This document shows positions 1,966 through 17,722 of a stretch of 64,000 nucleotides of DNA, piece after piece. Under the pieces are notes generated by a model. It had not been told where the DNA came from, did no database searches, and worked only from the letters and a program-made list of their open reading frames with translations. A program made the translations under genes and the position numbers. How positions within the stretch are numbered: position 1 is the first letter of the stretch; every line of letters starts with the position of its first letter. Source of the stretch: a virus (lineage: Duplodnaviria > Caudoviricetes); the IMG/VR virus record IMGVR_UViG_2907202186_000003, positions 74,081-138,080 of that record. The stretch is one strand, 5' to 3'.

Positions 1966-1985
1966 GTTTTAACCCCCTAAAACGA

Positions 1986-2186: not shown

Positions 2187-2228
2187 ATAATAATAGCCTC
2201 CTTAAATATAGGTAAAACAGTCATTTGA

Positions 2229-2588: not shown

Positions 2589-2607
2589 GATTTCATCTCC
2601 TATTTAC

Positions 2608-2817
2608 TCATAATTCTTCTAGTACAACTTTATATTTTTTCCCAGTAACATTGTTTGTGAAATGTGACAGTTCACTATAAATAAAGTTATTTCTTATATA
2701 GTCCTTATCTTTCTCTACTTCGGTTGCAAGAACCTGCATTAACTCATCTGTATTTTCAACAACATAAATACCCCAAACGTCGATGTGTTTTTCATGATAA
2801 GCATAAAATAATTTCAT
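2608..2817 (-). CDS. hypothetical protein
   Basis: Likely start MKLFYAY after the GAAGGAG RBS, which follows the motif at 2839. Confidence 0.6.
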   Translation of the reverse strand: MKLFYAYHEKHIDVWGIYVVENTDELMQVLATEVEKDKDYIRNNFIYSELSHFTNNVTGKKYKVVLEEL

Positions 2818-2869
2818 ATTTAGTATGCTCTCCTTCACATAAAATAGTTATTTGACCATGAATTATTTA

Positions 2870-3169
2870 TTAGAAATCTTTTCCTGCTTGTTTAAAATAA
2901 TTATCTAACTGCCGTTGTGCCTCTAGATGAGAAATAGGCGCCTTATTGATTCTTTCTAATTCAGTCTCAAGTTTCTTAACTTCATCGTCCGTGTTGTCTG
3001 GCTGTACTCCATTTTCACGCTGTGCTTTATTTAAAATTATCTGTTCTCTCAACCAAACCAATCTATTCAAGCAAAATCCATACCTATTTAGTTTTTCCTC
3101 AGTATCTCTTTTTTCAATCCATTCGTTACCGTTCCACTTATAGCCCTTTACGATCTTATCTTTCTTCAT
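2870..3169 (-). CDS. hypothetical protein
   Basis: ORF with GAGGTG RBS. Confidence 0.6.
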   Translation of the reverse strand: MKKDKIVKGYKWNGNEWIEKRDTEEKLNRYGFCLNRLVWLREQIILNKAQRENGVQPDNTDDEVKKLETELERINKAPISHLEAQRQLDNYFKQAGKDF

Positions 3170-3191
3170 GACCTTAACACCTCGTAGTTTT

Positions 3192-4184
3192 TTAAATAGC
3201 TTTTAGAACAATGTTTCCTGCATGATCAATAAATCCAGTGTCATCTTTTTTACTTGAAAATCTAACCAAGGCTAAACCTTCTTTGAATGAATCAATGTCT
3301 TCATACTGTGGCTCAACAATCCAATTACCAGACTTGTCAAGAACACCAAACGATTCTAAATACCTCTTCTTACCGTTTTTAACTGTGGCAAGCCCTTCAC
3401 TAAACCAAAAATTCTCGCTTGCAATATCTTTTACTATAGAATGCTCATACTTATCCATCAACCCAATAACTCTTCTATCTTGTGATCTCGTATTATTCAA
3501 AGGGCAATAAGAATACAAACCTTCTCCGGCATATCCCAAACTACTATAATCCTCTTTGAAAACTCTTTCTCCATTGCTATTGATTGCATAATATTTTGAT
3601 TGATCGAAATCATACACCACTGCTATACCATTATTAAAACCACTCGACACAGGATGATACTGATTTTTAATAACAACGGAACTGTTTATATTTATGAATC
3701 CAACCTTATAGTCTTGTTCAAATCTAATCAATCCGTCTTGAGGATGGCTTAAAGAATTAAAACTCGGCAACACAACCCATTCACCTTTTTTGTTTATCAT
3801 TCCATATCTATCATTTTTCTTCACAATCGAATATCCATTTCTAAAAGGACTGGCGGCTTCATATTTAGGCTCAATTATAAATTCACCACAATCATCTATA
3901 AAACCCGCTTTTCCGTCAATAACTACATTAACTAACCCTTCGGAGAATCCCCATGAAGCATATATCCCTTTATCAAATTTGCAGTCAATAATAATATCCC
4001 CATCTACGTTAATAAACCCCCATTTTTTAGAGGTATTTTGGAATGGGGCGTATCCCTCAGAGAAGTCTTCAGCGTAAGCAAACTTTGACTCAATTGCGAC
4101 TTCTCCATATTTATTAATGTATCCGTATTTTTTTTCATCTTGAATCAATGCCAAACCATTTGAAAAACCAGATTTATACTTCAC
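3192..4184 (-). CDS. WG-repeat (KWG-type) protein
   Basis: Repeated FSEGLA/F..G...V..GK.GFI...G..II units. Confidence 0.85.
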   Translation of the reverse strand: MKYKSGFSNGLALIQDEKKYGYINKYGEVAIESKFAYAEDFSEGYAPFQNTSKKWGFINVDGDIIIDCKFDKGIYASWGFSEGLVNVVIDGKAGFIDDCGEFIIEPKYEAASPFRNGYSIVKKNDRYGMINKKGEWVVLPSFNSLSHPQDGLIRFEQDYKVGFININSSVVIKNQYHPVSSGFNNGIAVVYDFDQSKYYAINSNGERVFKEDYSSLGYAGEGLYSYCPLNNTRSQDRRVIGLMDKYEHSIVKDIASENFWFSEGLATVKNGKKRYLESFGVLDKSGNWIVEPQYEDIDSFKEGLALVRFSSKKDDTGFIDHAGNIVLKAI

Positions 4185-4257
4185 ATTAATTCCTCCATAT
4201 CAAGATTGCTATGTATTTAGATTTCGCTAACCCCATGAAATAAACCTTTCACACACT

Positions 4258-4509
4258 CTAGTCCCTTGGATAGTTAACTTCCATTATGTCCATAAATGGC
4301 ACCTTAGTGATAACACCATCTTTCTTGATATGCACCTTTCCCGTCCGAGAGTCCATTTGATCGATTTGCCCCCTAACAGACTCTTCCCAACCCCACACGG
4401 TTAATACAATTTCTGATTCCTCTTGGTAGGCTTCGGTGAGTTGATTTCCTAACTCCTCAAGTACAAACTCATCTCTTGTTGGTCTCTTTGCTACCTTAGA
4501 TTTTGCCAT
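4258..4509 (-). CDS. YolD-like protein
   Basis: The pattern KRPTRDEFVLEELGNQLTEAY...LTVWG...G.ID.MD matches YolD-like SH3-fold proteins. Start taken at MAKSK after the AGGAGG RBS. Confidence 0.65.
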   Translation of the reverse strand: MAKSKVAKRPTRDEFVLEELGNQLTEAYQEESEIVLTVWGWEESVRGQIDQMDSRTGKVHIKKDGVITKVPFMDIMEVNYPRD

Positions 4510-4593
4510 CATTAATGCCCTCCTAGCTGTCGAATTCAGTACGCAAGAGTTGAAATGGCGACCTAAACGTTTCTGTTTGATCGCCAAGAAAAT

Positions 4594-4953
4594 TTAATTA
4601 TTATTCAATCTTTCTGTGATTTCTTTTATCTTTGAACGAGCAACATTGAGCTGTTCGCCATCTTTAAAAATAACCATTCCGTTAGCCTCATCAACATATT
4701 TCACTTGTTCAAGATTAATCATAAGATCTCTATCGGCCTGTAGAAACCCTTTTTCAGCGGAATAATACTCTGCCAAATCTTGAAACGTAGCAACCTGACT
4801 ATATCTGGCTCCGTTTGTGGTTGTATATACGGGTACTTTTTGACCCTTAATTATTTTTATTGAAACATGACTCACATCTTCAAGTTTGAAATCTTCAATC
4901 GATCCTGTATCATGATTATATCCGACCAATTCATTTGTTGTCATCGATGTCAC
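4594..4953 (-). CDS. stand-alone LytTR-domain protein
   Basis: FLQADRDLMINLEQV...VIFKDGEQLNVARSK resembles the LytTR FxRxHRSxxVN...lpVSR pattern. Confidence 0.7.
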   Translation of the reverse strand: MTSMTTNELVGYNHDTGSIEDFKLEDVSHVSIKIIKGQKVPVYTTTNGARYSQVATFQDLAEYYSAEKGFLQADRDLMINLEQVKYVDEANGMVIFKDGEQLNVARSKIKEITERLNNN

Positions 4954-5145
4954 CTCAAAGGTTATTATTGTATAATTTTACAATACAAAGTTACTTCAGA
5001 ACAGTACATTGTTTATCTATCAGTTATATAAGCATTGTATCACATAAATTTATATTTGTATATTTATTTTATTAATAATTTCAATTCAATCCAGTTGTGT
5101 CCCGATGTGCGAACAAACAATTTGCCTTTCTCAACTTTACCCCCT

Positions 5146-5325
5146 CTATACATATCTATATACGCTCCCAGTTCTACGGCTGTAAACCTCTACATAAGCT
5201 TTAAACTCGCTAGTGAGCTTGTACACTCTATCCATGATAATAAAGCTCATAGTCTCCTTGCAGCGTCCCAGTTGTGCAATGCTTTCTACCACTTGATTAT
5301 TTACCACAATATCATATGTATCCAT
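5146..5325 (-). CDS. small hypothetical protein
   Basis: Start MDTYDIVV after GGAGG. Confidence 0.6.
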   Translation of the reverse strand: MDTYDIVVNNQVVESIAQLGRCKETMSFIIMDRVYKLTSEFKAYVEVYSRRTGSVYRYV

Positions 5326-5377
5326 TATAAATACCTCCAATTAATATTTTTATTTTATTTTATTTGAAAGACTTATT

Positions 5378-5566
5378 TTATGCAGATTCATGTTTCGTCA
5401 TTTGGACACCATGGTAACTAACTTCTACAATATCAATTATCTCAGTTTCTTTATCATTAAACCAGAAATCATCTATCAGTTTTTTCGCATGTATTTCGTT
5501 GTTAGCTGTAACGATATGATACTTGGTATCCCCTAAAGCTTTAGTTTCAGCATAATAAATTCTCAT
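5378..5566 (-). CDS. small hypothetical protein
   Basis: ORF bounded by motifs at 5364 and 5581; GAGGAG RBS. Confidence 0.65.
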   Translation of the reverse strand: MRIYYAETKALGDTKYHIVTANNEIHAKKLIDDFWFNDKETEIIDIVEVSYHGVQMTKHESA

Positions 5567-5597
5567 TTTTTCAACTCCTCATGAAATACTTATTGTG

Positions 5598-5741
5598 TTA
5601 CCAGAATCTAACCTTATCATCCTCAATCGAGTAACCTTCAAGAATGAAGTTTATTCCTTCATTGGTATATGTAGCATCTTTATTTTCATGACCATGAGAA
5701 ATTAATTCTTCAAGTATCTCCTTTAACTCTATTAATTTCAT
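5598..5741 (-). CDS. small hypothetical protein (47 aa, not in ORF track)
   Basis: MKLIELKEILEELISHGHENKDATY...RFW*; AAGGAG RBS; bounded by motifs at 5581 and 5759. Confidence 0.6.
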   Translation of the reverse strand: MKLIELKEILEELISHGHENKDATYTNEGINFILEGYSIEDDKVRFW

Positions 5742-5872
5742 TGTCTTTTCAACTCCTTATAAATTACTTCTTTCATCCTATAACCCTGCCTAAAGTCCCA
5801 ATAAAATCTTCCAATATAACCAATTATGCTATATAGTTTATTTATCAAAATTAATAAGACTGGGGTAGACAT

Positions 5873-6373
5873 TTGATGAAAGCCATATTAATTATTGTTG
5901 TATTATTCATAGTTTGTGCACTGATACTCATTAAAATGAGGTCAAAAGGTCAAGAAAAAATCAACGATTATTCTAATAATCAATCAAAAGACCAAACCAG
6001 GAGTTTCTCCGGAGCTCTAAATGATGTAAGAAACGGAACATCTGAATTTGCTCCAGAAGCTATTAGGGGAATTGAGAAAATTAAGACTGTGCTTATGACT
6101 GATGAAGAAATTATTCACTCAGGTTATGGAAAAGATGGCTTTAAAAACGTAGTTTATGCTGTGACAAACAAACGATTTATAGCCTGTTATGTTGGAGTTA
6201 CTTCCGAACAACTCACTTCCATTAATTATAATAAGATTACAAATGTAGATATTAAAAACAAACTTAATTTATCATATGTTGTAATTCAAACAAGCGAGAA
6301 AGCAGTAGAGATTCTTGTCCAGAACAAACCAAGATCAGTTGAGTTTTTCAATTCAATAAATAGTTATACTTAA
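5873..6373 (+). CDS. membrane-anchored bacterial PH-domain protein
   Basis: N-terminal TM helix; AVTNKRFI and INYNKITNV are bPH-like motifs. Confidence 0.7.
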   Translation: MMKAILIIVVLFIVCALILIKMRSKGQEKINDYSNNQSKDQTRSFSGALNDVRNGTSEFAPEAIRGIEKIKTVLMTDEEIIHSGYGKDGFKNVVYAVTNKRFIACYVGVTSEQLTSINYNKITNVDIKNKLNLSYVVIQTSEKAVEILVQNKPRSVEFFNSINSYT

Positions 6374-6427
6374 TAATATTTTGGGTGAGGTCTTATTGAT
6401 CTCACCTTTCTTTATAAAAGAATCCTT

Positions 6428-6712
6428 TTATACAGACTTTCTCAATTGTCTTTGGCAAAACTGCATCGCCTCGAACAATGTTTCTGTGTCTGCTGTAACA
6501 TTCTGATAACCAAAGACTTTTTCATTCACATTGTTACTTGGTAAATCACTGTATACAAATAAAAAACCCCTTACAATCTTCCCCTTTCCTTCACCACAAT
6601 TGTCATCAGAAACAACCATGATATTATATTTACCAACAGGAATGATTAAACTTGCTTCAGCACCATCAGCATTACTTGCAATGATTCGGCCACCCAGTTT
6701 GATATTTTCCAT
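6428..6712 (-). CDS. hypothetical protein
   Basis: GAGGAG RBS; bounded by motifs at 6414 and 6728. Confidence 0.65.
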   Translation of the reverse strand: MENIKLGGRIIASNADGAEASLIIPVGKYNIMVVSDDNCGEGKGKIVRGFLFVYSDLPSNNVNEKVFGYQNVTADTETLFEAMQFCQRQLRKSV

Positions 6713-6785
6713 TGAACTAATCTCCTCATAAAATATTCATATTTAAACTTCAATTATCATAGCATCTTCGTTCTGCGACACTTTA

Positions 6786-7085
6786 CTATTTAAGCGAACA
6801 TCTCTTATGCTCCATGCTATAAATAACAATTTGATCGCCTGTCATTGACCTTGATCTATATCGAATGCCTAAACATTTAACTTTTCTTCCATCCTGAGTT
6901 TGACTCAATTTGTTGTTTTGATACTCTTGTTTTGTAAGGTTTTCATTGCATTTAGGGCAAAGCAATTCAAACGCTTCTTCAACATGCTCTGCCATGTAGT
7001 CATCTTCTAATTGTTCCTCATGGGTTCTTAGACTAAATTCTGTAAAGTTTGCTTTCGCATACAGAATGTCATTCAAAATCACCAC
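6786..7085 (-). CDS. hypothetical protein (CxxC)
   Basis: AGGAGG RBS; CPKC. Confidence 0.55.
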   Translation of the reverse strand: MVILNDILYAKANFTEFSLRTHEEQLEDDYMAEHVEEAFELLCPKCNENLTKQEYQNNKLSQTQDGRKVKCLGIRYRSRSMTGDQIVIYSMEHKRCSLK

Positions 7086-7143
7086 CTCCTGTTTTGCGGT
7101 ATTTTGTCTACTGTACTTAATAAATCCTCATAAAATAATCTTT

Positions 7144-7356
7144 TTATTCAAACTTACTATCTCTAATTAAGACATAAATAAAATCCCTTACTTCTGTATC
7201 ATCCCATCCCCACTCATCTGCCAGATCTTTTATCCTATCTGGAATCAAGTTAATAATGGCAGTTATTTGTGCTTCATCGGGAGCAATATTGTTAATATCA
7301 ATATAGCTGCTTCGAATTTGATCTTTTAATTCCCAAGTTCCATCCATATTATTCAA
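7144..7356 (-). CDS. hypothetical protein
   Basis: ORF bounded by motifs at 7130 and 7370. Confidence 0.6.
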   Translation of the reverse strand: MNNMDGTWELKDQIRSSYIDINNIAPDEAQITAIINLIPDRIKDLADEWGWDDTEVRDFIYVLIRDSKFE

Positions 7357-7387
7357 TCCTCATTTCTACGTAAAATATTCATTTTAA

Positions 7388-7462
7388 TGCCAACTACAGG
7401 AATTGAACCTGTCATCGCACCAATTTATGCTTTTGTAGTCATCACCAAAGACTCTAGCTGGC
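7388..7462 (-). tRNA. degenerate tRNA / tRNA-like element (anticodon arm poorly paired; possible CAT)
   Basis: Acceptor stem GCCAGCT/AGTTGGC plus discriminator A; D-arm AGTC-TTTGGTGAT-GACT; T-arm ACAGG-TTCAATT-CCTGT. Confidence 0.65.
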
Positions 7463-7481
7463 TATCTAATTATTACTTTAA

Positions 7482-7706
7482 TTAGTTCTTACTCTGTTCA
7501 CGGAAGAATAATTGCTCATATGCATCCGTTACTGCATCAACTGGATTATCGTATTGTTTTGATATCGCGCGTTCACGACTCTCAATCTGTTCCAGCATAC
7601 ACTTATACAAACCAACAGTATGCAAATAGAGAATGTAATCATCTCCCTGAATATTTACAATGGAGACTTGAACCTTATTGTTGTTGATTTCACTCATCGA
7701 TAGCAT
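7482..7706 (-). CDS. hypothetical protein
   Basis: GGAGGTGA RBS. Confidence 0.65.
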   Translation of the reverse strand: MLSMSEINNNKVQVSIVNIQGDDYILYLHTVGLYKCMLEQIESRERAISKQYDNPVDAVTDAYEQLFFREQSKN

Positions 7707-7742
7707 ATCCTCACCTCCTCTCAGTGGTTATGGATGAAAGGA

Positions 7743-7976
7743 TTATTTAATTACAAATTCTATTTCCTTATATTCAAACTTATCACCATGTCTTGAATCA
7801 TAGAACTTTTCCCAAGCTAGCAGATCCTCTTCTTTTTCTGTTTCACTAAATACCATTGATTCAATTAAGTTGTCAGTATATTCACCGACTTTTCCAATCC
7901 ATACATTTCCTTCTACACTCTGGATGCTGCACCACTTAATAAATTTATCTCCAACTTTGATTACATATCTGCTCAC
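7743..7976 (-). CDS. hypothetical protein
   Basis: Bounded by motifs at 7734 and 7992; GGAGTGA RBS. Confidence 0.65.
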   Translation of the reverse strand: MSRYVIKVGDKFIKWCSIQSVEGNVWIGKVGEYTDNLIESMVFSETEKEEDLLAWEKFYDSRHGDKFEYKEIEFVIK

Positions 7977-8008
7977 TATGTATCACTCCCCATGAAAGGA
8001 TCATTTCA

Positions 8009-8377
8009 TCAATACTTCAATGCTTTTCCCTTGCCTATGGTCAATTTCCATGCAAGTAAACATCCTTCTTCAAGTTCTTGTTTGTCAGTAAAACACATAT
8101 CACACTGCCCGTTTCTAAAAATCTCGCACTGTCTCTCAACAATGTTATGAAGAGTTTTTCTTTTGATAATTCTAGCAGCAGTTCCCTTAATATATCGTTC
8201 CTCGGTGTAAACTGTTATGTATTCTGGATCATTTTGCAGCTCTAAAGTACTTCTTTGTGGTTTAACTGTTTTTTCAAACCGTGCGGCGAACATGTAAACA
8301 CGATTATTAAAGTCATCATTTACGTACACAGCCCTCATTGGAGCAGTTACATTTGTATCTTCCTCAATCTGATACAC
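8009..8377 (-). CDS. hypothetical protein (5' end possibly frameshifted)
   Basis: ORF present; the RBS-supported ATG at 8426 is out of frame by one base. Confidence 0.55.
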   Translation of the reverse strand: MYQIEEDTNVTAPMRAVYVNDDFNNRVYMFAARFEKTVKPQRSTLELQNDPEYITVYTEERYIKGTAARIIKRKTLHNIVERQCEIFRNGQCDMCFTDKQELEEGCLLAWKLTIGKGKALKY

Positions 8378-8436
8378 TTTATTAAGTGTCAGATTGTCTG
8401 TGGCTGCTGTGCATTTTCCCCACCATTTATCTCCTT

Positions 8437-8676
8437 TTAATTGTTCTCTCTCCCATCTTTGTCAATTTTCGCTCCAGCTCTAATATAAACTTCCAAGTTT
8501 CTCGGAATCTTAAACTGATTACGATCAAATATTGGCATTTGTTCTTCCGGAATAGAGCCACCAGACACATGAAATACTTCTCCATTCCATTGTCTAACGA
8601 AACCCCAGAATCCATAATAAGGTGATTCTTTATCAATAATTTCAATCAGTTTACCTATTGAATTTTCAGGCTTCAT
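8437..8676 (-). CDS. hypothetical protein
   Basis: GAGGAG RBS following the motif at 8693. Confidence 0.65.
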   Translation of the reverse strand: MKPENSIGKLIEIIDKESPYYGFWGFVRQWNGEVFHVSGGSIPEEQMPIFDRNQFKIPRNLEVYIRAGAKIDKDGRENN

Positions 8677-8777
8677 TTAAAAACAACTCCTCATGAAAAG
8701 ATCCTATGATTTAGTCTTGATCCAGCGGATCAATACGGTTTTCATAGCAGTAAGATTCTCAATTCCTTAGTAAAAGA

Positions 8778-9023
8778 TCATTTTAAAGGAAACTTTGTGT
8801 ATAGTTCCTCTCTAAACTCGTCATTTTCGATTAGGTAAAATTCGTCAATGATACTTCCTTGATCGTCCCAGATTTTCATTTTCCAATCGTGCAGTATTTC
8901 AACAGAAGTTCCATAGTATTTAGTCAACGAATCAAATTTAAACTTTACTTCATTATATTGTGTACTTTCTTCGGTAACATCAATCCAATCAGACTCTAAA
9001 ACATGAATACCGAACAATATCAT
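8778..9023 (-). CDS. hypothetical protein
   Basis: Bounded by motifs at 8770 and 9039; GAGGAGTG RBS. Confidence 0.65.
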   Translation of the reverse strand: MILFGIHVLESDWIDVTEESTQYNEVKFKFDSLTKYYGTSVEILHDWKMKIWDDQGSIIDEFYLIENDEFREELYTKFPLK

Positions 9024-9060
9024 AAAAAATCACTCCTCATTAAAATATAGTTTCATCAAC

Positions 9061-9228
9061 TTAAATTGCTACAAGTTGGATGTTGGCTTTTTCTCCAGGA
9101 ATAATAACCAAATCACCGTCTTCCTCACACATCTGTTTAAACAATATCATTTGTTCGTATTTCGGAAAAGTATATGTATTCATTACTAGTTTACCTAGTA
9201 CCTTTTCAACAACAGCGATTTTATACAT
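9061..9228 (-). CDS. small hypothetical protein (55 aa, not in ORF track)
   Basis: MYKIAVVEKVLGKLVMNTYTFPKYEQM...; GAGGTGA RBS. Confidence 0.55.
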   Translation of the reverse strand: MYKIAVVEKVLGKLVMNTYTFPKYEQMILFKQMCEEDGDLVIIPGEKANIQLVAI

Positions 9229-9321
9229 TTCAATATCACCTCTTTGTTTTGTTAGTTAAATTATACCATATGATTTTATATTATGTCTATATTTATTTTG
9301 TTAAATATAAAGGAATAAACA

Positions 9322-9957
9322 TCATCCTTTATATTCTGTATCGCTATTCAAAATAGGATCGAAATATTTTTCCTCGGCTCGTTTACGAGCTTTTATAGCA
9401 TCTTCCTTTTCGGAAAAATACCCTAGAGATATTTGTTTCCCCTTAAATCCAATGTGTGCCGTCCATTTTTGACGGGATTCATTCCATCGTACACCCTTGT
9501 GTCCACTTTTATTGCCTTTATGGAGCTTTGCCTTCAAAGCGGTTTTCCTCGTCCCATCCACACGGTCAGTTTTTTCATGCTCTCTTGCACCTATATCACG
9601 TTTTTCCTCTCTATTACACCCACAACTCTTATAATACCCAGCCCGCAGGCTGGCCCCGAGAACATATATAACTTCCCCACACTTGCAACGACATTCCCAA
9701 AGCCTTGTTCCGTTTGCCCCTCTTTTGTCGCTTAGTCGGATAACCTTCAAATCACCAAAATCCATGTCAGACAAGTCTTTCATTCTTGATGTGGTCCTAT
9801 GGCTGCCATATTCCAATTCAGCGTCTTTTCGCGCTTGTACGGCGTCCTCGACATCAGTGAAATAGCCTAAATATTTTCGTTTTTTATTTACAAATATATA
9901 AGCACGATACTTGCCTTTGCGGCTGTCATAACTAACGTCTTTGTGATCATCTATCAT
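9322..9957 (-). CDS. AP2-domain DNA-binding protein (homing-endonuclease-associated architecture)
   Basis: Two AP2-like repeats (KYRAYI...YLGYF.D.EDAV.AR; KWTAHI...SLGYF.EKEDAI.AR) flank a WECRCKCG...KSCGC module. Confidence 0.8.
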   Translation of the reverse strand: MIDDHKDVSYDSRKGKYRAYIFVNKKRKYLGYFTDVEDAVQARKDAELEYGSHRTTSRMKDLSDMDFGDLKVIRLSDKRGANGTRLWECRCKCGEVIYVLGASLRAGYYKSCGCNREEKRDIGAREHEKTDRVDGTRKTALKAKLHKGNKSGHKGVRWNESRQKWTAHIGFKGKQISLGYFSEKEDAIKARKRAEEKYFDPILNSDTEYKG

Positions 9958-10172
9958 TTTCCTACCTCAAATCGGCTTGCGAACCAAAGCGGAGTTAAAT
10001 TACCTGTCCGCCCCTTGATTACAGCATCTGGCCGTGAAAACCGCTTTTCCTTACCGCGGTAAGATGGATTCAACATCGCCTTAGCTGTCTTACTTACATT
10101 TTGCTGAGTGGTACCGATATGTTCAGCAACCCACTCAGCTCCAACGTATTCAAGGGGCGGTGTTACTTTACC
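9954..10172 (-). CDS. small HTH protein, Aca-like/AlpA-like (no canonical start visible; not in ORF track)
   Basis: Open frame ...LEYVGAEWVAEHIGTTQQNVSKTAK...FSRPDAVI...PLWF. Its TGA overlaps the ATG of the AP2 gene. Confidence 0.55.
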   Translation of the reverse strand, partial: GKVTPPLEYVGAEWVAEHIGTTQQNVSKTAKAMLNPSYRGKEKRFSRPDAVIKGRTGNLTPLWFASRFEVGK

Positions 10173-10441
10173 AGTGTCACGCCTATTGGATTATACCAGT
10201 CACACATTTCTGACTCATCAGTGATTTCTTCGTACTCATCATAAACATCCCACACCAGAATATATTCGTTATTTTCTGCATCAACAGCGGTTGCTTTGTA
10301 GTGGGGGCGTTCGCCGGAAACTCCATCAATATATGGGTCCTGTGTGGTCTTCAAGGTTTTCCCTTCAAAATCAATCACCGTCGAGTTAAACTCGTTCAGA
10401 TCGCTAAAAGTTTTCACTAAATTTTTCCTCCTTGACATCAT
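10163..10441 (-). CDS. small acidic hypothetical protein (candidate anti-CRISPR); true start probably internal
   Basis: D/E-rich C-terminus WDVYDEYEEITDESEMCDW; lies next to the solitary CRISPR repeat and the HTH gene. Confidence 0.55.
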   Translation of the reverse strand: MMSRRKNLVKTFSDLNEFNSTVIDFEGKTLKTTQDPYIDGVSGERPHYKATAVDAENNEYILVWDVYDEYEEITDESEMCDWYNPIGVTLVK

Positions 10442-10460
10442 ATTTAATATGATTTAATTT
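10432..10460 (+). promoter_or_regulatory. sigma-A-like promoter with palindromic operator for the solitary repeat
   Basis: TTGACA at 10432-10437; TG-A-TTTAAT or TAATTT as -10; perfect palindrome ATCATATT-T-AATATGAT at 10437-10453. Confidence 0.65.
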
Positions 10461-10472
10461 AAAAATGTAAGT

Positions 10473-10504
10473 GTCGCACCCCGTGCGAGTGCGTGGATTG
10501 AAAT
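10473..10504 (+). CRISPR. solitary type I-C-like CRISPR repeat (candidate Racr / crRNA-like RNA)
   Basis: GTCGCACCCCGTGCGAGTGCGTGGATTGAAAT (32 nt) fits the I-C repeat pattern GTCGCAC...GTGCGTGGATTGAAAT. No second repeat and no cas genes were seen. Confidence 0.88.
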
Positions 10505-10526
10505 ATTCTTATAGTATTTCAGCAGG

Positions 10527-10551
10527 AGGCCCTTTACGGGGCCTTTTGTGT
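10527..10551 (+). terminator. intrinsic terminator after the solitary repeat
   Basis: AGGCCC-TTTACG-GGGCCT followed by TTTGTGT. Confidence 0.7.
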
Positions 10552-10577
10552 TACCATCCCGATGATGCCCTCTTAAT

Positions 10578-10979
10578 TTAAAATAGTTGCGCAATCACGA
10601 GAGCGTCCTTTATTACAATCTCTCCGTGATCAGGATCGTCATGGCGTCCCAGGCGCTTACTGGCGATTATGTAACAATGATCGGTACCAAAAATTTGGTC
10701 GCGCGCCTTTTCAGCTGCGAAGGAAGAATATTCGTAAGTCTGGCTGATTGACATGTCCCAGGCGGATGTACCGTTAAGAAGTTCCATCTCCTCGTATTCC
10801 TCTGTCCCGTATTTAGGGAACTCCCTTTCATCTTCGCGATCAGCGTTATGGCGGCTGTATTCGCATTCCTCACCGATCGCGCGTTCCTTGTTTTCAAAAC
10901 GAAGTCCGATAAAATAGAATTCATTCTCATTGGCGACGTAGATTTCTTTAGCCTCCGCGTACATTTCTGCGACTGTCAT
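10578..10979 (-). CDS. acidic hypothetical protein, possible ADP-ribosyltransferase-like fold (candidate anti-defence)
   Basis: Start MTVAEM after GAAGGAGG; IGLR / GTSAW / DHGEIVI recall the R-S-E ART motifs. Confidence 0.55.
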   Translation of the reverse strand: MTVAEMYAEAKEIYVANENEFYFIGLRFENKERAIGEECEYSRHNADREDEREFPKYGTEEYEEMELLNGTSAWDMSISQTYEYSSFAAEKARDQIFGTDHCYIIASKRLGRHDDPDHGEIVIKDALVIAQLF

Positions 10980-11028
10980 CTTAATTCCTCCTTCATATAT
11001 TTTTCCGTGATTCCTTGTTGTTGGTTTT

Positions 11029-11061
11029 ATTATATCACACAAGGTTGTGCTACACAACCTT
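11029..11061 (-). promoter_or_regulatory. sigma-A promoter with palindromic operator
   Basis: Minus strand TTGTGT-17 bp-TATAAT with extended TG; perfect inverted repeat AAGGTTGTG-CTA-CACAACCTT at 11041-11061. Confidence 0.7.
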
Positions 11062-11192
11062 TTCTTGAAAATATTATAATTTCCATACACAAATAACTCC
11101 AAGCAACAAAACTAACTCGCTTGGAGTTTGATAAAATTAATCTTTCATTAAGAAAGACAACCCCGAAAATAAGATTGTCTTTGCAATATAAA

Positions 11193-11378
11193 TTATTCAG
11201 TTTCAGTCCAGTACATGATTTTCACATGATTTGGAGTGGTTTTTTCTAACCTCACAATCTGTTCTTTTACATAATCATGTACTTCTCTCTCTTCTCCATT
11301 TGGAACATCGTAAATGCTTGCTCTTTTGTTGTGCTGTACTCTGTCAACAAATAGAATGTAATCAACTTCGAGTGTCAT
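11193..11378 (-). CDS. small hypothetical protein
   Basis: GAGGGG RBS. Confidence 0.55.
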   Translation of the reverse strand: MTLEVDYILFVDRVQHNKRASIYDVPNGEEREVHDYVKEQIVRLEKTTPNHVKIMYWTETE

Positions 11379-11478
11379 GATTGCCAGCCCCTCTATATGT
11401 AATTATTTTCCTGTTATATCTTTACGCTTGTCGGAGTCAAAGTTTACTAGCCGAGAGATTGTTATCAAAAAAATAAAG

Positions 11479-11973
11479 TTAGGAGTTACTTTTTAGTTTT
11501 ACCTTATATTTTTCAGCTAGTTCTTTTACTTTATCCTGATATTCTCGCATCATCTTCCTTGCCTCTGAAAGCTTCTCATTCGCTTCAGTAATAGTCTTTA
11601 TATCCTGTTCTTCTAGAGCATAAGCGATTGTTGTTAAAGCTGAATTCTGACGATTTAATCCGTCTATATAAATATTATGTACTTCTCGTAACTCTTTTGA
11701 TTCAATTTTAACACTTTCAACTTTTCCAGTGAACTCGTTATAACCAGGTATTACTTTGTCCACCAAAACGTTGTAGGTTGTTTCGTCATCCGTAAAATTT
11801 GCTCCTGTTACACTTTCATAGGTATTAACTAACTCCTGTTCTTCAGTAAACAGAGGAACCATTTGTTCGTTAATATAAGACAGTAATTCTTCTGTTACCG
11901 GGTCAGTTTTGCTACACCCCATTAGAACATTAAAGAGCAACATAGTGCTGATAAGAATTATTAACTTTTTCAA
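11479..11973 (-). CDS. lipoprotein, helical
   Basis: Signal peptide with lipobox LMGC. Confidence 0.75.
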   Translation of the reverse strand: MKKLIILISTMLLFNVLMGCSKTDPVTEELLSYINEQMVPLFTEEQELVNTYESVTGANFTDDETTYNVLVDKVIPGYNEFTGKVESVKIESKELREVHNIYIDGLNRQNSALTTIAYALEEQDIKTITEANEKLSEARKMMREYQDKVKELAEKYKVKLKSNS

Positions 11974-12109
11974 AAGAAAACCTCCTAGTCTTAAATACCT
12001 TTTATCTTGTAGATTATAATGGAAAATAGTTCAAAAGCAATAGGGTATTTGGAACTAATTACATCTAATTCATTTCACAACTCTTCTTATTTTTCATGAA
12101 ATAACTGTT

Positions 12110-12295
12110 TTATCCAACTTTATCTTCTATTACCTGACAGACTGTGTGTGTAAGTACTAAAAATGTTAATGTAAATAATAAAAACGGAAAACTATTGTGC
12201 CATCCTTCTTGAAATACACACTGTGTATCTAATACTCCAAAAACAAAACAAGCGATACCAAATAATACAAGTCTACATTTAGATAATTTCTCCAT
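12110..12295 (-). CDS. small membrane protein
   Basis: Start MEKLSK after AAGGAG; two hydrophobic segments. Confidence 0.5.
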   Translation of the reverse strand: MEKLSKCRLVLFGIACFVFGVLDTQCVFQEGWHNSFPFLLFTLTFLVLTHTVCQVIEDKVG

Positions 12296-12355
12296 TGTCC
12301 ATATCTCCTTTTTGTAAAATTCTGCTTTTAACAGCTTCCTAATTAATAACTCCAA

Positions 12356-12658
12356 CTAATTTTGATCAAAAATCATGCAGTACTCACAATCATCAAAAAT
12401 GGCCTTTTCAATTTCTTTATTGGTTGCATCCTCCCAAACAGTTACCTTCCCGTTATATGTACCAATTGGCCTGACACTAATTGTATATTCGACTTCCTTG
12501 ATTTTTCTTTGTTCGCTGTACGCTTTCTCTGCTGCTATAAGATTCTCAATAGCTTCATCAAACTCAGCTCTAGTTCGATTATTGTTTGTTGTTCCTGCAA
12601 TACATGCCTTTTGATTAACAATGGATTGCAATTTCTCAATATCTTTTCTTGTGATCAT
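12356..12658 (-). CDS. hypothetical protein
   Basis: GAGGTGA RBS following the motif at 12677. Confidence 0.65.
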   Translation of the reverse strand: MITRKDIEKLQSIVNQKACIAGTTNNNRTRAEFDEAIENLIAAEKAYSEQRKIKEVEYTISVRPIGTYNGKVTVWEDATNKEIEKAIFDDCEYCMIFDQN

Positions 12659-12690
12659 TTCTCTTTCTCACCTCTTATAAAATACTGTTT

Positions 12691-12978
12691 TTATTGGAAG
12701 TACATTTCCTCGATTTTACGTTTAAATCGCGCTAAATTATTTTTTGCTTGTTGGTATGATCCATTCAAACCCTTCAACTCCAACGAATCAATTTGAGCAC
12801 CAAATTGATTAAACACCGTTACCGATAAATCAAAATCTCCAAAAAACTTATGATTTTCATTAAATATATTTTCTTTCCCTACTATTTCTGCCTGAGCTTT
12901 ATAGTTGTTATTGCTTAAATACTCCAGCGAACAATTTTTTATATCAAGTTTCTCAGTTGCCCATTCCATCTTTACCAC
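12691..12978 (-). CDS. hypothetical protein
   Basis: Bounded by motifs at 12677 and 12984. Confidence 0.65.
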   Translation of the reverse strand: MVKMEWATEKLDIKNCSLEYLSNNNYKAQAEIVGKENIFNENHKFFGDFDLSVTVFNQFGAQIDSLELKGLNGSYQQAKNNLARFKRKIEEMYFQ

Positions 12979-12997
12979 TCCTTATAAAATCGTTGTT

Positions 12998-13279
12998 TCA
13001 CTTAGATTCCTTAAATACCTGGTCATAATTTCCTTCAACATCTACTAAATGCAAATATGAATAAATCTGTGCAACAATATCTTTAATCTCTTTTCTTTGT
13101 CGTAGAACAAAGTTACGGTACAATTCATCTTTTAATAGTTCTTCTCCCACCAGACCGGAGAGCATCTCAATTTTACTTGTGATATCTGCAATCTCATTTC
13201 CCATTGCCTTCACTTTATTTCTTGCATATCCTGTAAAGTGGATCTCTTTTTCAATGCTTTCCAATTGATCTCGATTCAT
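12998..13279 (-). CDS. hypothetical protein
   Basis: Bounded by motifs at 12984 and 13309. Confidence 0.65.
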   Translation of the reverse strand: MNRDQLESIEKEIHFTGYARNKVKAMGNEIADITSKIEMLSGLVGEELLKDELYRNFVLRQRKEIKDIVAQIYSYLHLVDVEGNYDQVFKESK

Positions 13280-13682
13280 TTAGTTAACTCCTTATATTAT
13301 GTATTTTTATTAAATAACCGTTTTAATAATGATAAGCCCCCATAAACCGATGCACAGTGAATACAAGATTGCATTTTCAAACGTTAGATGCTTCATAATT
13401 CTCATGTGATTTCCTCCACCTAATCTATAAAGCGTTGCTGTTCTTTATCATGTGAAAGTAACCTTTCATACAGAGAATTCATATCGTTCACATATAAATC
13501 GAGTAAAAAATTTAAATAGATAAACTCCTCAATGGATGCAATTTGCTGGTCTATTGCATCCATGATCTCATCAGGTAAAAGCGCAGGAAGCAATATACTG
13601 GAGGTTTCCTGCGCTTACCTGATAATTAACGTATGTACATTTTATATCGCTCTCTCTATGCATTGTTGTGGTCTCATAAACT

Positions 13683-13925
13683 CTACCAAAAACATGATCC
13701 AGTATTATTATATGTTACCTGATGAATTCCTTTTGTTTTAAGGAAAGCCTCCAATTTACTATAAAATTCATTTGAGGGATTAAGAACGAAACTGCTAACA
13801 AACGCATTATCAGTTATGCCTATATCAACTTTAAATCCGTTTCGTCTTAGCTTAATTATTGATCCCATGTTTTTAAGCGTTTGATTAAATTCATTTATAT
13901 ATTCTTCAGTAATTTCACTCATCAA
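13683..13925 (-). CDS. hypothetical protein
   Basis: AAGGAGTGG RBS. Confidence 0.6.
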   Translation of the reverse strand: MMSEITEEYINEFNQTLKNMGSIIKLRRNGFKVDIGITDNAFVSSFVLNPSNEFYSKLEAFLKTKGIHQVTYNNTGSCFW

Positions 13926-14010
13926 ACTTCCACTCCTTTTTAATATGAATCGATTTTCAGGATACCATCTCTTAAAGTTGTAGTAAAGACGAATAGGAGA
14001 ATTATATCCC

Positions 14011-14511
14011 CTATTCTAATCCGCACTTATCACAAAATTCATCCCATGCCTTATCATATTTCTTACTTCCCGATCTACCTCCAAACTCTTTAGACCACAT
14101 GTCTGCTACAATTTGAAATTGTCTATCAGTTAGGTCTTCGATTTCTTTCATGAATAACTCTTGTGCTATGCTGTAGCAAAATCCCTTTTCCTGTATTCTT
14201 ATTTCGATACCACTTGGTGGATAATATCGCTTATTGTCTTTATCCATCAGATAATCGATAAGCCATCCGTTTTTCTCATAATAGTACTCGCGCGTTTTCT
14301 GTTCTTCTGTTTCTCTTGCCTCAATTTGTGCGTGTCTGTCTGCCTTAAACTTTATGTATTCGTCAACATTTCTTTTGTTTCCCATTTCCCAAACTTTGAT
14401 GCCTGACACAATCTGCACACATTCGCTACCATATGGCTTACCTTGATACTCGAAAATGTTCTTGATACCTTGACCACATCTCGTACAATTAGAAATGATT
14501 CCTGTTTCCAT
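14011..14511 (-). CDS. hypothetical protein with N-terminal Zn-finger-like motif
   Basis: CTRCG...YGSECV; GGAGG RBS. Confidence 0.7.
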   Translation of the reverse strand: METGIISNCTRCGQGIKNIFEYQGKPYGSECVQIVSGIKVWEMGNKRNVDEYIKFKADRHAQIEARETEEQKTREYYYEKNGWLIDYLMDKDNKRYYPPSGIEIRIQEKGFCYSIAQELFMKEIEDLTDRQFQIVADMWSKEFGGRSGSKKYDKAWDEFCDKCGLE

Positions 14512-14638
14512 TTTTGACCGCCTCCGTGTTTTAACTTATAACTAATTATAACACGGGTTATGCATTTACACAATAATATGTTTATATTTATTTTATTGTT
14601 TTTACTTAAAATAAGCATTTCATCGTGTTTTATAAACC

Positions 14639-14854
14639 TTATGTATCACTGTTGGAATTCTCTATTAGAATTTCACAAGCACTATCAAATACAATTTCTT
14701 TCGACAACTGATATCGCTCTTTATTCTTCTCATAATGCACTACAAACATAGGATAAAGTTGCAATTCACTACAACCTTCTTTCATGAGTCTCATCTTTAA
14801 TACTTTTAGATGAGTTCTTAAATGCTCAACAGTTTTTATCTCCAAGTTAACCAC
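14639..14854 (-). CDS. hypothetical protein
   Basis: ORF downstream-bounded by the motif at 14606. Confidence 0.5.
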   Translation of the reverse strand: MVNLEIKTVEHLRTHLKVLKMRLMKEGCSELQLYPMFVVHYEKNKERYQLSKEIVFDSACEILIENSNSDT

Positions 14855-14871
14855 ACCTTATTACATTTATT

Positions 14872-15093
14872 TTATTTACTGCTATAACCAGAAGAACGAA
14901 TTATGCTTTCAATCGAATTTATATTGTTTCTCTCTAAAATAATGTTTCTTACCCAATTCGGCCTATTTAATTTATTTTTATAAAAGGCTTTTTGGAATAC
15001 CTTTATGTTTCCTTCGCCCGTAAATATGGCAATTTTACAAGGTGTATTTTGCATTGCTTTTATTGTTCCTTCATAAATCTTAAATAATTTCAT
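14872..15093 (-). CDS. hypothetical protein
   Basis: AGGAG RBS. Confidence 0.6.
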   Translation of the reverse strand: MKLFKIYEGTIKAMQNTPCKIAIFTGEGNIKVFQKAFYKNKLNRPNWVRNIILERNNINSIESIIRSSGYSSK

Positions 15094-15117
15094 TTTTATT
15101 TCTCCTATAATTAATAA

Positions 15118-15264
15118 CTACCATTCTCTACCGTTTCTGACCGCTTCTAAATTTTCTTTTGCGTGGTTAATGTATTCTTCTTTTCGAGAATCATTTCCAT
15201 AAGCACTAACTACCTTTTCCAATTGTTTTTCATAATACTTAATTAGCTCTTCTCTTGTTTTCAT
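15118..15264 (-). CDS. small hypothetical protein (48 aa, not in ORF track)
   Basis: MKTREELIKYYEKQLEKVV...GREW*; GAGGGGG RBS. Confidence 0.55.
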   Translation of the reverse strand: MKTREELIKYYEKQLEKVVSAYGNDSRKEEYINHAKENLEAVRNGREW

Positions 15265-15322
15265 TTTTTCATTCCCCCTCTAATTTGTTGGTGAAACAAG
15301 CGTTACTTAGATACTTTTTACT

Positions 15323-15562
15323 CTAGATCCCTTCAACCTCAATTACTCTATCAATCATTTCTTCCAGGTCCAAGACAGACTTTTCATTAACTTTAATTTG
15401 ATTTTTATATACTTCAATTGTGCATTTTTCTGTAAGTATTGTTGCTGTAGGTGCAATTACAAATGTTGTACTGTCTCCTGCTACTTCGTGACCATAACCA
15501 TATGTATTCAATTTCTCGCTGATTGAGTTGACCAGTTTTTCAATGCTCTTCATCGGTATCAC
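15323..15562 (-). CDS. hypothetical protein
   Basis: ORF with RBS. Confidence 0.6.
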   Translation of the reverse strand: MIPMKSIEKLVNSISEKLNTYGYGHEVAGDSTTFVIAPTATILTEKCTIEVYKNQIKVNEKSVLDLEEMIDRVIEVEGI

Positions 15563-15765
15563 TTCCTTATAATTTGTATAATTACTTTATTAAATGTTAT
15601 ATCTAAGTGGATAGATTTTTTCCTTCCTGTGGCAATATACATAAATAGTATTATTGTGAAATCCTATTGTTTCCATTTTTGTCCCAGCGATATGAAAAAT
15701 GAAACCTTTCTCCGTTATGTTTTTCATCTTTTGTCCCCTCCAGTTTAGTTGAAACAAGAATTTTA

Positions 15766-16077
15766 TCAATTGTCGATCATTTGCAGATTATTTCTTGTAA
15801 TAAAAGCTTTAACTTCTGAAACACCCCAAGCTTCTTTTCCCCAATCTTTTATATTTTCACTTTCAAAATTCTCTACTCTATTAAATTCAACCGAAACTCC
15901 TTCTTCAATGAGTTTATCAAGGCACGAAGAATGTCTGTATGTCTCCATTTGATAAAATTCTTTATGCTCATCTTCGATAAGTAGACCTTTTTTTTCTATA
16001 AAGCAGAGTTTGATTTTTTTCTGCTCTAATTCTGATAATACATCTTTAAAATCCACAATAATCTTTTTATTTTTCAT
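15766..16077 (-). CDS. hypothetical protein
   Basis: Bounded by motifs at 15749 and 16098; GGAGG RBS. Confidence 0.65.
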   Translation of the reverse strand: MKNKKIIVDFKDVLSELEQKKIKLCFIEKKGLLIEDEHKEFYQMETYRHSSCLDKLIEEGVSVEFNRVENFESENIKDWGKEAWGVSEVKAFITRNNLQMIDN

Positions 16078-16138
16078 TTCTTATTCCTCCGTGTTCTATG
16101 AAATCACTCTTTCACTTACTGTTTTAGAAGGACACATA

Positions 16139-16618
16139 CTATTTTATATGTGTCCACAACTTACCCGAGTTCTTACTTTGACATTTCTTGCAAACATGTG
16201 CACCATCAGGTGGTAAATCTAATGGATCACCTTGAAGCAAATTAGGTCTATCAAGATTGTAACTTTGACAAGATGGATATCTATTATTCTCGATTTCAAA
16301 TCCAATTTTATGCCACGTTCCTGTTTTTGATTGCATCCACTTTTTAAGTCCAGCAGATTCCTCAATTGCTTTACTTGTATTTTTATTTTCTTTTTTTGCT
16401 TCTATATTTTGACGTTTGAGTAAATCTTGTTTCGCTCTGTTCAGATCACGCTGCAGTATGCCAATTTCAACTGCTGCTTTTCTTTCTTCAGAACCTGCAG
16501 GAAATGTTGCCCAGCACTCTAAAGGGTCAGCTCCTAAATTTTTTAGAGTTTCAACTTGTACTAAGATTTTCGATTCATATCTTTCAACCTTTTTAACGGC
16601 TGCCTCAAGTTTGTTCAC
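16139..16618 (-). CDS. hypothetical protein (coiled coil + C-terminal H/C motif)
   Basis: GGAGGG RBS; WH...C...CKKC. Confidence 0.6.
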   Translation of the reverse strand: MNKLEAAVKKVERYESKILVQVETLKNLGADPLECWATFPAGSEERKAAVEIGILQRDLNRAKQDLLKRQNIEAKKENKNTSKAIEESAGLKKWMQSKTGTWHKIGFEIENNRYPSCQSYNLDRPNLLQGDPLDLPPDGAHVCKKCQSKNSGKLWTHIK

Positions 16619-16738
16619 TTTGTCAACCCTCCATAATCGGATAAAATGAGTATTTCTTTTAACGATTTAGTTATATTATTATTATATTTACTTTATAATA
16701 AAATGTCAAGCCTTTGTTTTCTTTTTTTAAAGCGAAAT

Positions 16739-17206
16739 TCAAGTAAAATATTGATAATCAAATTCAATATTTAGCTCAATTTGCTCTATTGTCGGCTCCC
16801 AATATATTAAATTACCTTGATCTTTATAATAAGCTACGTTGTTTTTTATAAAGAATGTCTTATTCGAATAAAATCCACAATTTCTCATATCCTCCAATAA
16901 ATATTTTAAATCGTTACAGTCATCATTGAACAATAAACCATTTATATAGTTATAGTATTTAGCAAGATTATAAATTAATATCTCGTCTAAGCAGAATTCT
17001 AGATTTGGATGAAGTAAAACCTTATTCAAATTTATAAAAATTGTATCCTCTTCAAAAATCACATAACTATATCTATATTTCATTTTATTAGGAATGAATA
17101 TTTTTCCTTTATATTCAAGACTACATATCTTCTTTGCGAGAAATTTAGTCTTTCTTTCTAACATTGGAATGGAATTATCATCTTTCGAGAGTAATGTTTG
17201 AATCAA
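16739..17206 (-). CDS. hypothetical protein, possibly degenerate SprT-like
   Basis: LDEILIYNLAKYYNY.NG..F.D resembles the SprT HExxH region with the His residues lost. Confidence 0.45.
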   Translation of the reverse strand: MIQTLLSKDDNSIPMLERKTKFLAKKICSLEYKGKIFIPNKMKYRYSYVIFEEDTIFINLNKVLLHPNLEFCLDEILIYNLAKYYNYINGLLFNDDCNDLKYLLEDMRNCGFYSNKTFFIKNNVAYYKDQGNLIYWEPTIEQIELNIEFDYQYFT

Positions 17207-17371
17207 AATATTCTCTCCTTTTATTAAAGATTTTACTTAGTGTTCAAATATACAATGTTACTAATTGTACCATTGTATATTTGTCTTGCCACCTAACCGC
17301 TCAATGTCAGCGGTTAACGCTCTAGGCTTAAGGCTCAATCCCGATATGTCGGGAACCGCCTAGACGGTTTA

Positions 17372-17644
17372 TTATACATTCTGTTTTAGTAACAGATAGT
17401 TATAACTTGCTAATTCATTAAGGTCAATTCCCTTTGATTCAATTAAATTTTTGATCTGTTCTTTAAAGGTATTCAGTCCAGTGATTCGGTCTTCTTTATT
17501 TGCAATTTCTTCGGTGTTTTGGATTTCTTGTATCGCAAAGCTAATATCGATCATAAATCTATATAATTCTACTGGAGTACCTTTTAATTTAACCTCTAAT
17601 TCAATATTAGTTTCAAAATCATTTTTCATTGTAATTACCTCCAT
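17372..17644 (-). CDS. hypothetical protein
   Basis: GGAGG RBS before the internal MKNDF. Confidence 0.6.
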   Translation of the reverse strand: MEVITMKNDFETNIELEVKLKGTPVELYRFMIDISFAIQEIQNTEEIANKEDRITGLNTFKEQIKNLIESKGIDLNELASYNYLLLKQNV

Positions 17645-17722
17645 TTTTTAGTCATATCATACCACTAATATGCAACATCAGTAATAATGAAATGAGGATT
17701 TCAATCTGATTTAATTCAAGTA

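Follow-up and report, generated by a model that had tools for sequence, protein, structure and literature searches.

In acr-aca operons, anti-CRISPR genes (CRISPR, clusters of regularly interspaced short palindromic repeats) are accompanied by a helix-turn-helix (HTH) protein, Aca, an autorepressor that binds inverted repeats at the promoter. Solitary CRISPR repeats of viruses function as RNA anti-CRISPRs and are clustered with acr genes, being enriched within 1 kb of them, and include a type I-C example; RacrIC1 adjoins an AcrIC5 homologue in a Bifidobacterium prophage and is co-transcribed with acrIC5 (PMC10651486). Among protein inhibitors, AcrIF11 is an ADP-ribosyltransferase (ART) anti-CRISPR of ~130 amino acids (PMC12421852). 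Programmed −1 frameshifting is known from bacterial cassettes such as dnaX (A_AAA_AAG), OrfA-OrfAB of the IS3 and IS1 insertion sequence (IS) families, IS1222 (G_CGA_AAG), and Bacillus subtilis cdd (A_CGA_AAG) (PMC5009743). Here, we describe an island that resembles each of these systems in part. It occupies positions 9322-11061 of a 64,000-nucleotide stretch (the window; positions 74,081 to 138,080) of the IMG/VR virus record IMGVR_UViG_2907202186_000003 (Duplodnaviria; Caudoviricetes). An initial annotation had read this island as an acr-aca-like operon with a hidden HTH gene. Our comparison strongly supports one of the origins that it had offered for that gene, in which the HTH frame would be read by −1 ribosomal frameshift from the open reading frame (ORF) preceding it, and is neither decaying nor separately initiated.

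The sequence features that the initial annotation had listed for the island were all present, and the minus strand carries every gene. The HTH frame is open over 9957-10190 and, as claimed, has no ATG, GTG, or TTG before an internal methionine codon at 10076. The gene upstream, ORF2 (10166..10417, minus strand), encodes 84 amino acids with an isoelectric point (pI) of 4.05 from a GTG start behind AAGGAGG, and its 0-frame product is 9.7 kDa. ORF2 ends with the slippery site G_GUA_AAG (10172-10166, minus strand), and the 0-frame stop UAA (10165-10163) follows directly, so that site and stop form one element at 10163..10172. In the −1 frame, 70 codons after the slip (9957..10169, minus strand; stop at 9954-9956) specify a basic, winged-HTH-like C-terminal domain. 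Ribosomes would translate the acidic ORF2, and a fraction would slip by −1 at the last sense codon, with Lys-tRNA moving from AAG to AAA, and enter the start-less frame. The predicted product is an ORF2~winged-HTH fusion of 154 amino acids and 17.5 kDa with the junction ...GVTLVK-VTPPLEY... The ORF2-only product, which would be far more abundant, would share the N-domain of the fusion and probably modulates it.

This arrangement is not confined to the window. In 15 distinct loci, spread over several genera (the window, L008, L011, L013-L022, L026, and L034), a small acidic ORF lies upstream and the HTH frame is its −1 frame; these upstream ORFs belong to at least five different sequence types. 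Each of them ends with a −1 shift site that is followed immediately by UAA or UAG. The site is G_GUA_AAG in the window and eight other loci, A_AAA_AAG in L020 and L021, G_GGA_AAG in L022 and L026, U_UUA_AAG in L018, and G_GGG_GAG in L015; A_AAG, A_AAA_AAG, G_GGA_AAG, and the Bacillus cdd site A_CGA_AAG are documented bacterial −1 shift sites (PMC5009743). Hopping of Val-tRNA from GUA to GUA (+5) was considered as another route into the frame and was rejected: L018 (UUA), L020-L022, L026, and L015 have no matching take-off codon, and a −1 slip fits all loci.

Relatives in which the two domains are naturally fused in frame show what the slip is expected to produce. In L033, an N-domain of the L020/L021 type runs directly into the HTH domain, and its junction, ...YVERK-VSPLLEYV..., is exactly the slip product predicted for L020 and L021. 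Likewise, P0120 is an in-frame form of the L026 type. The frameshift architecture is established by comparison, and of the origins that the initial annotation had offered for the start-less frame, it is the −1 shift from the upstream ORF that the slip sites, the in-frame fusions, and the stem described below bear out across loci. Two other arrangements of the family were seen. In another genus, L024:3-2160 holds a compound cassette made up of an ORF1 homologue, a zinc-ribbon/AP2 protein, an acidic domain fused in frame to the HTH (188 amino acids), and another AP2 protein. In L025:1459-1750 (minus strand), the HTH domain lies in the same frame as the preceding 86-amino-acid ORF, with a single TGA between them and no start codon of its own, a state that readthrough of the stop codon or a recent nonsense mutation could explain.

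In the 14 loci that were scanned for downstream structure, 13 have a helix of 10-14 bp that begins 5-6 nucleotides after the slip site and closes a loop of ~125 nucleotides. In the window, the 5' arm CCGCCCCUUGAAUA (10147..10160, minus strand) starts 5 nucleotides after the slippery site and pairs with a segment ~130 nucleotides downstream, the 3' arm (10009..10022, minus strand), which falls in the HTH-domain codons that specify VIKGR. The same two arms are present in L034, a locus outside the scan that was read by eye. When the loci are aligned, the helix is 92.9% paired, compared with 44-50% when the arms are slid against one another. Five of its pairs change on both sides, for example from C-G to A-U in L011, a change that also alters both encoded residues, and the observed covariation was reached in 0 of 500 shuffles, a control that leaves the relatedness of the loci in place. 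The helix is absent from relatives that have no need of a shift, namely L028 and L023, which have their own start, and L024, which is an in-frame fusion. The region in the window folds at −66.5 kcal/mol (z = −4.6), with the long-range stem closing a branched loop. Starting 5 nucleotides downstream of the slip site, this stem would stimulate the −1 slip.

The island thus has several features of the known −1 frameshift cassettes. It shares the A_AAG core, with A_AAA_AAG, G_GGA_AAG, and U_UUA_AAG among its relatives, and a spacer of 5-6 nucleotides followed by a downstream stem; one mRNA is also predicted to yield two products, the short protein of the 0 frame and a fusion that gains a further domain. 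In contrast to those cassettes, the island represents a new gene family, predicted to encode a small phage DNA-binding regulator. Its slip codon, the last sense codon, lies directly against the 0-frame stop, and its stimulator is a long-range stem that closes a structured loop of ~125 nucleotides inside the downstream coding region. It also differs from the IS elements in that the DNA-binding domain is carried by the extension, whereas the short IS product carries the HTH. A keyword search of the literature for a frameshifted prophage HTH regulator, which was not exhaustive, returned no relevant paper.

The HTH family is small, since an exhaustive profile search of 1.8 billion representatives recovered only 41 proteins. 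A word-index search gave four homologues of the HTH frame with 67-82% identity, and a profile search found it in 16 of 401 genomes of the same family. Pfam has no model for the HTH family, and searches of ORF1, ORF2, and the HTH against Pfam, PHROGs, PADLOC, and PDB sequences gave nothing significant. For ORF2, a small, all-beta domain is predicted. Its predicted fold returned generic small beta-sheet matches only (Z < 5), with no informative neighbours. The C-terminal domain of the family is also found fused to an XRE-type HTH (P0115) and, in the high-GC protein P0116, tandemly duplicated. These occurrences are suggestive of a portable DNA-binding or partner-binding module.

The operon would be transcribed from a promoter whose −35 element and spacer sit under a palindromic candidate operator (11029..11061, minus strand). 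The −35 element is TTGTGT (11057-11052), followed by a 17-nucleotide spacer and an extended −10 element, TGATATAAT (11037-11029). On the minus strand, the palindrome at 11041-11061 reads AAGGTTGTG-TAG-CACAACCTT, a perfect 9-3-9 repeat that covers the −35 element and the spacer. The initial annotation had described a strong promoter overlapped by a perfect inverted repeat; the overlap and the perfection hold, whereas "strong" rests on the extended −10 element, the −35 element matching at only three of six positions. The promoter was read directly from the sequence, and a consensus scanner missed it on account of that poor −35 match. A perfect palindrome with 9-bp arms is not rare in itself, as the window contains five compared with a mean of 2.5 in shuffles; what lends this one weight is where it lies and that other loci conserve it. 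The pattern GGTTGT-N5-ACAACC over a TTGTNN −35 element, followed by a conserved −10 element and 5' untranslated region, precedes the cassette in L008, L013, L016, L017, L020, L028, and L029. In other loci the inner bases have changed on both arms in compensation: GGTTGCG..CGCAACC in L018, GGTTGTC..GACAACC in L022, GGTTGCA..GCGCAACC in L034, and GGTTTAC..GTAAACC in L033. Comparison therefore establishes the conservation of the repeat upstream of HTH-family cassettes, and its proposed role as a candidate operator gains from this.

Because the palindrome accompanies the HTH family both in cassettes with ORF1 or the AP2 gene and in cassettes that lack them, its likeliest binding protein is the HTH fusion, and autoregulation the likeliest role. 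We infer from this co-occurrence that the ORF2~HTH fusion would bind the palindrome as a dimer and thereby autoregulate the operon.

The spacer of 160 nucleotides between ORF1 and ORF2 holds a solitary type I-C CRISPR repeat unit, antisense to the operon (10432..10552, plus strand). The repeat itself is 32 nucleotides long (10473-10504). It is preceded by a promoter-like site, with TTGACA (10432-10437) and a weak −10 element, TAATTT (10455-10460), 17 nucleotides apart and an 8-1-8 palindrome (10437-10453) in the space between, and after it come a second hairpin and a strong intrinsic terminator with a 12-bp stem (about 10522-10552). The predicted plus-strand repeat RNA of ~80 nucleotides folds at −32.9 kcal/mol (z = −3.7). 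The repeat is single-copy in a 6.6-Mb genome, in which our search found no cas1, no second repeat, and no array. Allowing up to three mismatches, it matches arrays in 33 of 201 genomes of the host's family; by BLAST, the figure is 183 of 401, including 28 of 58 species of the same genus. Type I-C-like arrays in one species of that genus match it at 31 of 32 positions.

None of the other cassettes that were examined has a solitary repeat, and in L034, which has the same operator-ORF1-ORF2~HTH cassette, only 17 nucleotides separate the ORF1 and ORF2 homologues. By this comparison the repeat unit is established as an insertion specific to this copy. Its flanks had no match in 400 genomes of the family. 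Given that viral solitary repeats act as RNA anti-CRISPRs near acr genes (PMC10651486), a decoy is the best guess for its role: the repeat RNA, a candidate RNA anti-CRISPR, would most likely be a decoy for the Cas proteins of related hosts. Like RacrIC1 and other viral solitary repeat units, it is a lone type I-C repeat located between the genes of a prophage, nearly identical to the arrays of related hosts and situated inside a small accessory operon. Unlike RacrIC1, it runs antisense to the operon and requires a promoter of its own, and it has one mismatch in its stem. It also lies in a host without a matching system, whereas about 90% of the prophages that carry solitary repeat units are in CRISPR-positive hosts (PMC10651486).

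Two further genes appear to be cargo that often travels with this regulatory core. ORF1 (10581..10979, minus strand), the first of the two small acidic ORFs that had been reported here, encodes 133 amino acids with a pI of 4.5 and belongs to a widespread Bacillales prophage family without a Pfam model. Members of this family are about 135 amino acids long, form at least 90 sequence clusters with strongly conserved motifs, and come from Paenibacillus, Brevibacillus, Bacillus, Geomicrobium, and Virgibacillus; R27, S72, and E120 are invariant. An ORF1 homologue adjoins the HTH cassette in L024, L028, L033, and L034; elsewhere, homologues stand alone at prophage ends beside lysis genes. In Bacillus smithii (L031/L032:1-2698), the homologue adjoins a gene for a UvrD-like helicase, within which lies an intein with a LAGLIDADG domain.

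The AlphaFold2 model of ORF1 is confident, with a predicted local distance difference test score (pLDDT) of 91. A Foldseek search of the PDB with this model found nothing at E < 1. In an exhaustive VIA alignment the best match was Arr (Z 4.5, root-mean-square deviation 3.5, 81 positions aligned), which is below the level that the tool treats as meaningful. The weaker matches, likewise below that level, are enriched in the ART fold and comprise 6b, CNFy, TreX/TreTu, PARP13/15/16, TASOR, and CopC (Z 2.2-4.3). Only uncharacterised phage proteins were found in BFVD, and there was no usable match in the ESM Atlas. ORF1 is like AcrIF11 in its size, in being widespread in mobile elements, and in its weak structural neighbours of the ART fold (Arr, Rhs toxins, and PARPs), and differs from it in having no sequence match and no significant structural match. 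An enzymatic, ART-like role such as that of AcrIF11 is possible but unproven.

At the other end of the island, the AP2/zinc-ribbon gene (9325..9957, minus strand) encodes 211 amino acids with an AP2 domain, a zinc ribbon of the form CxCxC...CGC, and a second AP2 domain (Pfam AP2, 3e-9). Its start overlaps the stop of the HTH frame (ATGA), the overlap that the initial annotation had described. Homologues follow the HTH domain in L008, L014, L018-L021, and L024.

Taken as a whole, we consider it probable that the island is an autonomous operon with a frameshift-made, autoregulating HTH fusion, ORF1 and the AP2 protein as cargo and, in this copy alone, a type I-C decoy repeat that has been inserted antisense between ORF1 and ORF2 together with a promoter-like site and a terminator. 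Several observations weigh against this explanation. The P-site Val-tRNA re-pairs poorly at G_GUA_AAG, which makes it a weaker site than a canonical X_XXY_YYZ heptamer, and the frameshift fusion is a predicted product only. Four loci (L008, L011, L014, and L019) keep an open −1 frame with GTG or TTG, so independent initiation may add expression there. Both stem arms lie within codons for conserved residues (PPLEY and FEGR/IKGR), and part of the conservation of the pairing is therefore protein constraint; the shuffle control also leaves relatedness in place. The HTH assignment draws only on the sequence pattern and on sub-threshold profile matches: a PHROG annotated "DNA binding protein" scored E 0.053, and 5 of 17 members matched winged-HTH Pfam models at E 0.08-0.2. 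As for the repeat unit, its −10 element is weak, its single difference from the arrays of the same genus creates a C-A mismatch in the repeat stem, and in a host without cas1 or a second repeat it has no target in this cell.

The alternative that best survives is a classical acr-aca operon, in which ORF1 and ORF2 would be free anti-CRISPRs and the HTH a separately translated Aca repressor without a canonical start. Several features agree with this: the island is a short operon at a prophage accessory site, its ORFs are small and acidic, a predicted HTH-type protein is encoded on the 3' side, a conserved inverted repeat covers the promoter, and the small ORFs 5' of the conserved HTH vary among loci. 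There is also a solitary type I-C repeat inside the operon, of a kind enriched near acr genes (PMC10651486). However, the variable upstream ORFs are linked to the HTH by a conserved slip site and stem or are fused to it in frame, and are therefore regulator domains, not cargo. ORF2 is inherited jointly with the HTH in 10 loci and, on these comparative grounds, is the N-terminal domain of the HTH regulator and no independent small acr gene. This predicted translational fusion also sets the island apart from known acr-aca operons, as does the lack of homology to known Aca and Acr families: ORF1, ORF2, and the HTH had no match to Acr or Aca proteins of solved structure (PDB chain sequences), nor to any family in Pfam or PADLOC. 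ORF1 is broadly conserved and often has no HTH nearby, and its link to CRISPR runs only through this locus. The repeat is found in this one copy of the cassette alone, and the host has no cas1.

For these reasons we hold a classical acr-aca operon to be improbable. The part of that proposal that stands is an autonomous, operator-controlled unit with an HTH-type protein at its 3' side; the assignment of the two acidic ORFs as anti-CRISPRs is not supported. While an Aca-like reading of the HTH and its palindrome is reasonable, an anti-CRISPR function of the island is a guess from one adjacency.

There is a smaller chance that the HTH domain is translated separately, by termination-reinitiation or from a non-canonical start near the ORF2 stop. 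The two frames overlap at the stop codon, as they do in coupled genes. Some relatives have their own start (GTG in L028 and ATG in L023), and L008, L011, and L019 retain an upstream in-frame GTG or TTG. On the other hand, at most loci the −1 frame has stops just 5' and no ATG, GTG, or TTG after them. In the window, L013, L016, L018, L021, L022, and L026, no such start codon is present between the last −1-frame stop and the conserved domain, and the window lacks ATT, ATC, and CTG there as well. Known slip sites, A_AAA_AAG among them, invariably make up the last sense codons, structure 5-6 nucleotides downstream would hinder initiation rather than help it, and the in-frame fusions reproduce the junction of the slip.

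We give very little credence to the view that the HTH frame in the window is a recently crippled pseudogene, descended from a GTG-started gene through nonsense changes at codons 2 and 5. Where relatives have their annotated GTG start, the window does read V*LV*; compared with P0001 (MRLGKSNW...), its V*LV*SNRR has TGA for CGA and TAA for AAA. Yet in the ORF2 frame, which is the frame selected there, these "nonsense" changes are one synonymous and one non-synonymous change. Moreover, stops in the ORF2/HTH overlap recur independently in L013, L016, L017, L018, L019, and L026, and the 70 downstream codons are intact everywhere. The ratio of non-synonymous to synonymous substitution rates (dN/dS) is 0.07-0.17 between start-less HTH copies, and 0.07-0.11 for the copy in the window. 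Decay, which the initial annotation had listed among the possible states of the frame, is excluded by these values. Least credible is a selfish insert of the homing-endonuclease type, with the AP2 protein as the nuclease and the other ORFs as passengers, since for all the foreign GC content, the location between phage genes, and the matches of the AP2 protein to PHROG "HNH endonuclease" families (up to 3.5e-40), those matches are confined to the DNA-binding AP2/zinc-ribbon parts (e.g., positions 188-260 of 617), Pfam finds AP2 without an HNH or other nuclease domain, and the L034 and L011 cassettes have no AP2 gene.

The operon is set in DNA of a different composition. The window corresponds to G000:C11:238803-302802 of a 6.6-Mb genome with 48-50% GC. 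It is contained in a block of ~140 kb with ~34% GC and sharp edges (C11, about 164000-303000), and this block appears to be a giant prophage or some other element of foreign composition that has integrated. Within it, the GC content is 43.2% in 9322-11061, against 33.9% and 32.2% in the 2-kb flanks, in agreement with the GC-rich island that had been noticed initially. Homologues of the island proteins come from Paenibacillus and other Bacillales; a megablast search of a phage collection with the island as the query gave no match. The island would be an autonomous, horizontally mobile accessory ("moron") operon within this low-GC prophage.

At the upstream edge, an inverted-repeat scan located a hairpin (11095..11128, minus strand) with a 10-bp stem and a U-rich tail, which is likely the terminator of the upstream phage gene (11193-11378). 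The downstream edge is marked by a perfect inverted repeat of 11 bp across the AP2 stop codon (9304..9335, minus strand), which is AT-rich and terminator-like. The next gene, a low-GC gene of 55 amino acids (9061-9228), has its own near-consensus promoter (9289-9260). Given its own promoter, these flanking hairpins, and the separate promoter of the next gene, 9322-11061 is a self-contained transcription unit.

A palindrome of the form RTRAAA-N6-TTTYAT recurs just 5' of the ribosome-binding site of many minus-strand prophage genes (window 1430-17700, e.g., 7992, 8693, 9039, 11131, and 17687) and may form a hairpin in the mRNA or be bound by a protein. Two copies of it bracket the inserted island. 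Those at 9039 and 11131 had been proposed as the boundaries of the island; the motifs are real, but the separate gene at 9061-9228 also lies between the 9039 copy and the island. Farther away, a Pistol ribozyme (Rfam RF02679; 17287-17354, minus strand) matches over its full length with 38.8 bits against a gathering score of 34.5 and is the sole Rfam match in the window.

We also considered a more far-reaching role for the proposed regulator, which we find doubtful and put forward tentatively. The HTH family might be a new Aca-like class of controllers of anti-defence morons in Bacillales phages whose activity is set by recoding: at a fixed frameshift ratio, N-domains without the HTH would be plentiful and would titrate or sense, whereas N-domain~HTH repressors would be scarce. 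The cargo would then be a two-pronged attack on type I-C CRISPR-Cas by an enzymatic, ART-like ORF1 and the antisense repeat RNA as a decoy.

The island provides a well-supported case of programmed −1 frameshifting in phages of Gram-positive bacteria, and one that concerns a regulator rather than a tail chaperone or a transposase. The long-range stem is an unusual stimulator, and the in-frame relatives are natural "controls". This architecture also explains why gene callers miss the HTH domain or assign it spurious overlapping starts. Furthermore, it defines promoter, operator, and regulator as a portable cassette by which accessory genes are carried. Finally, the island supplies a candidate type I-C RNA anti-CRISPR and, in ORF1, a candidate enzymatic partner, in a bacterial family where matching arrays are present in nearly half of the species sampled.

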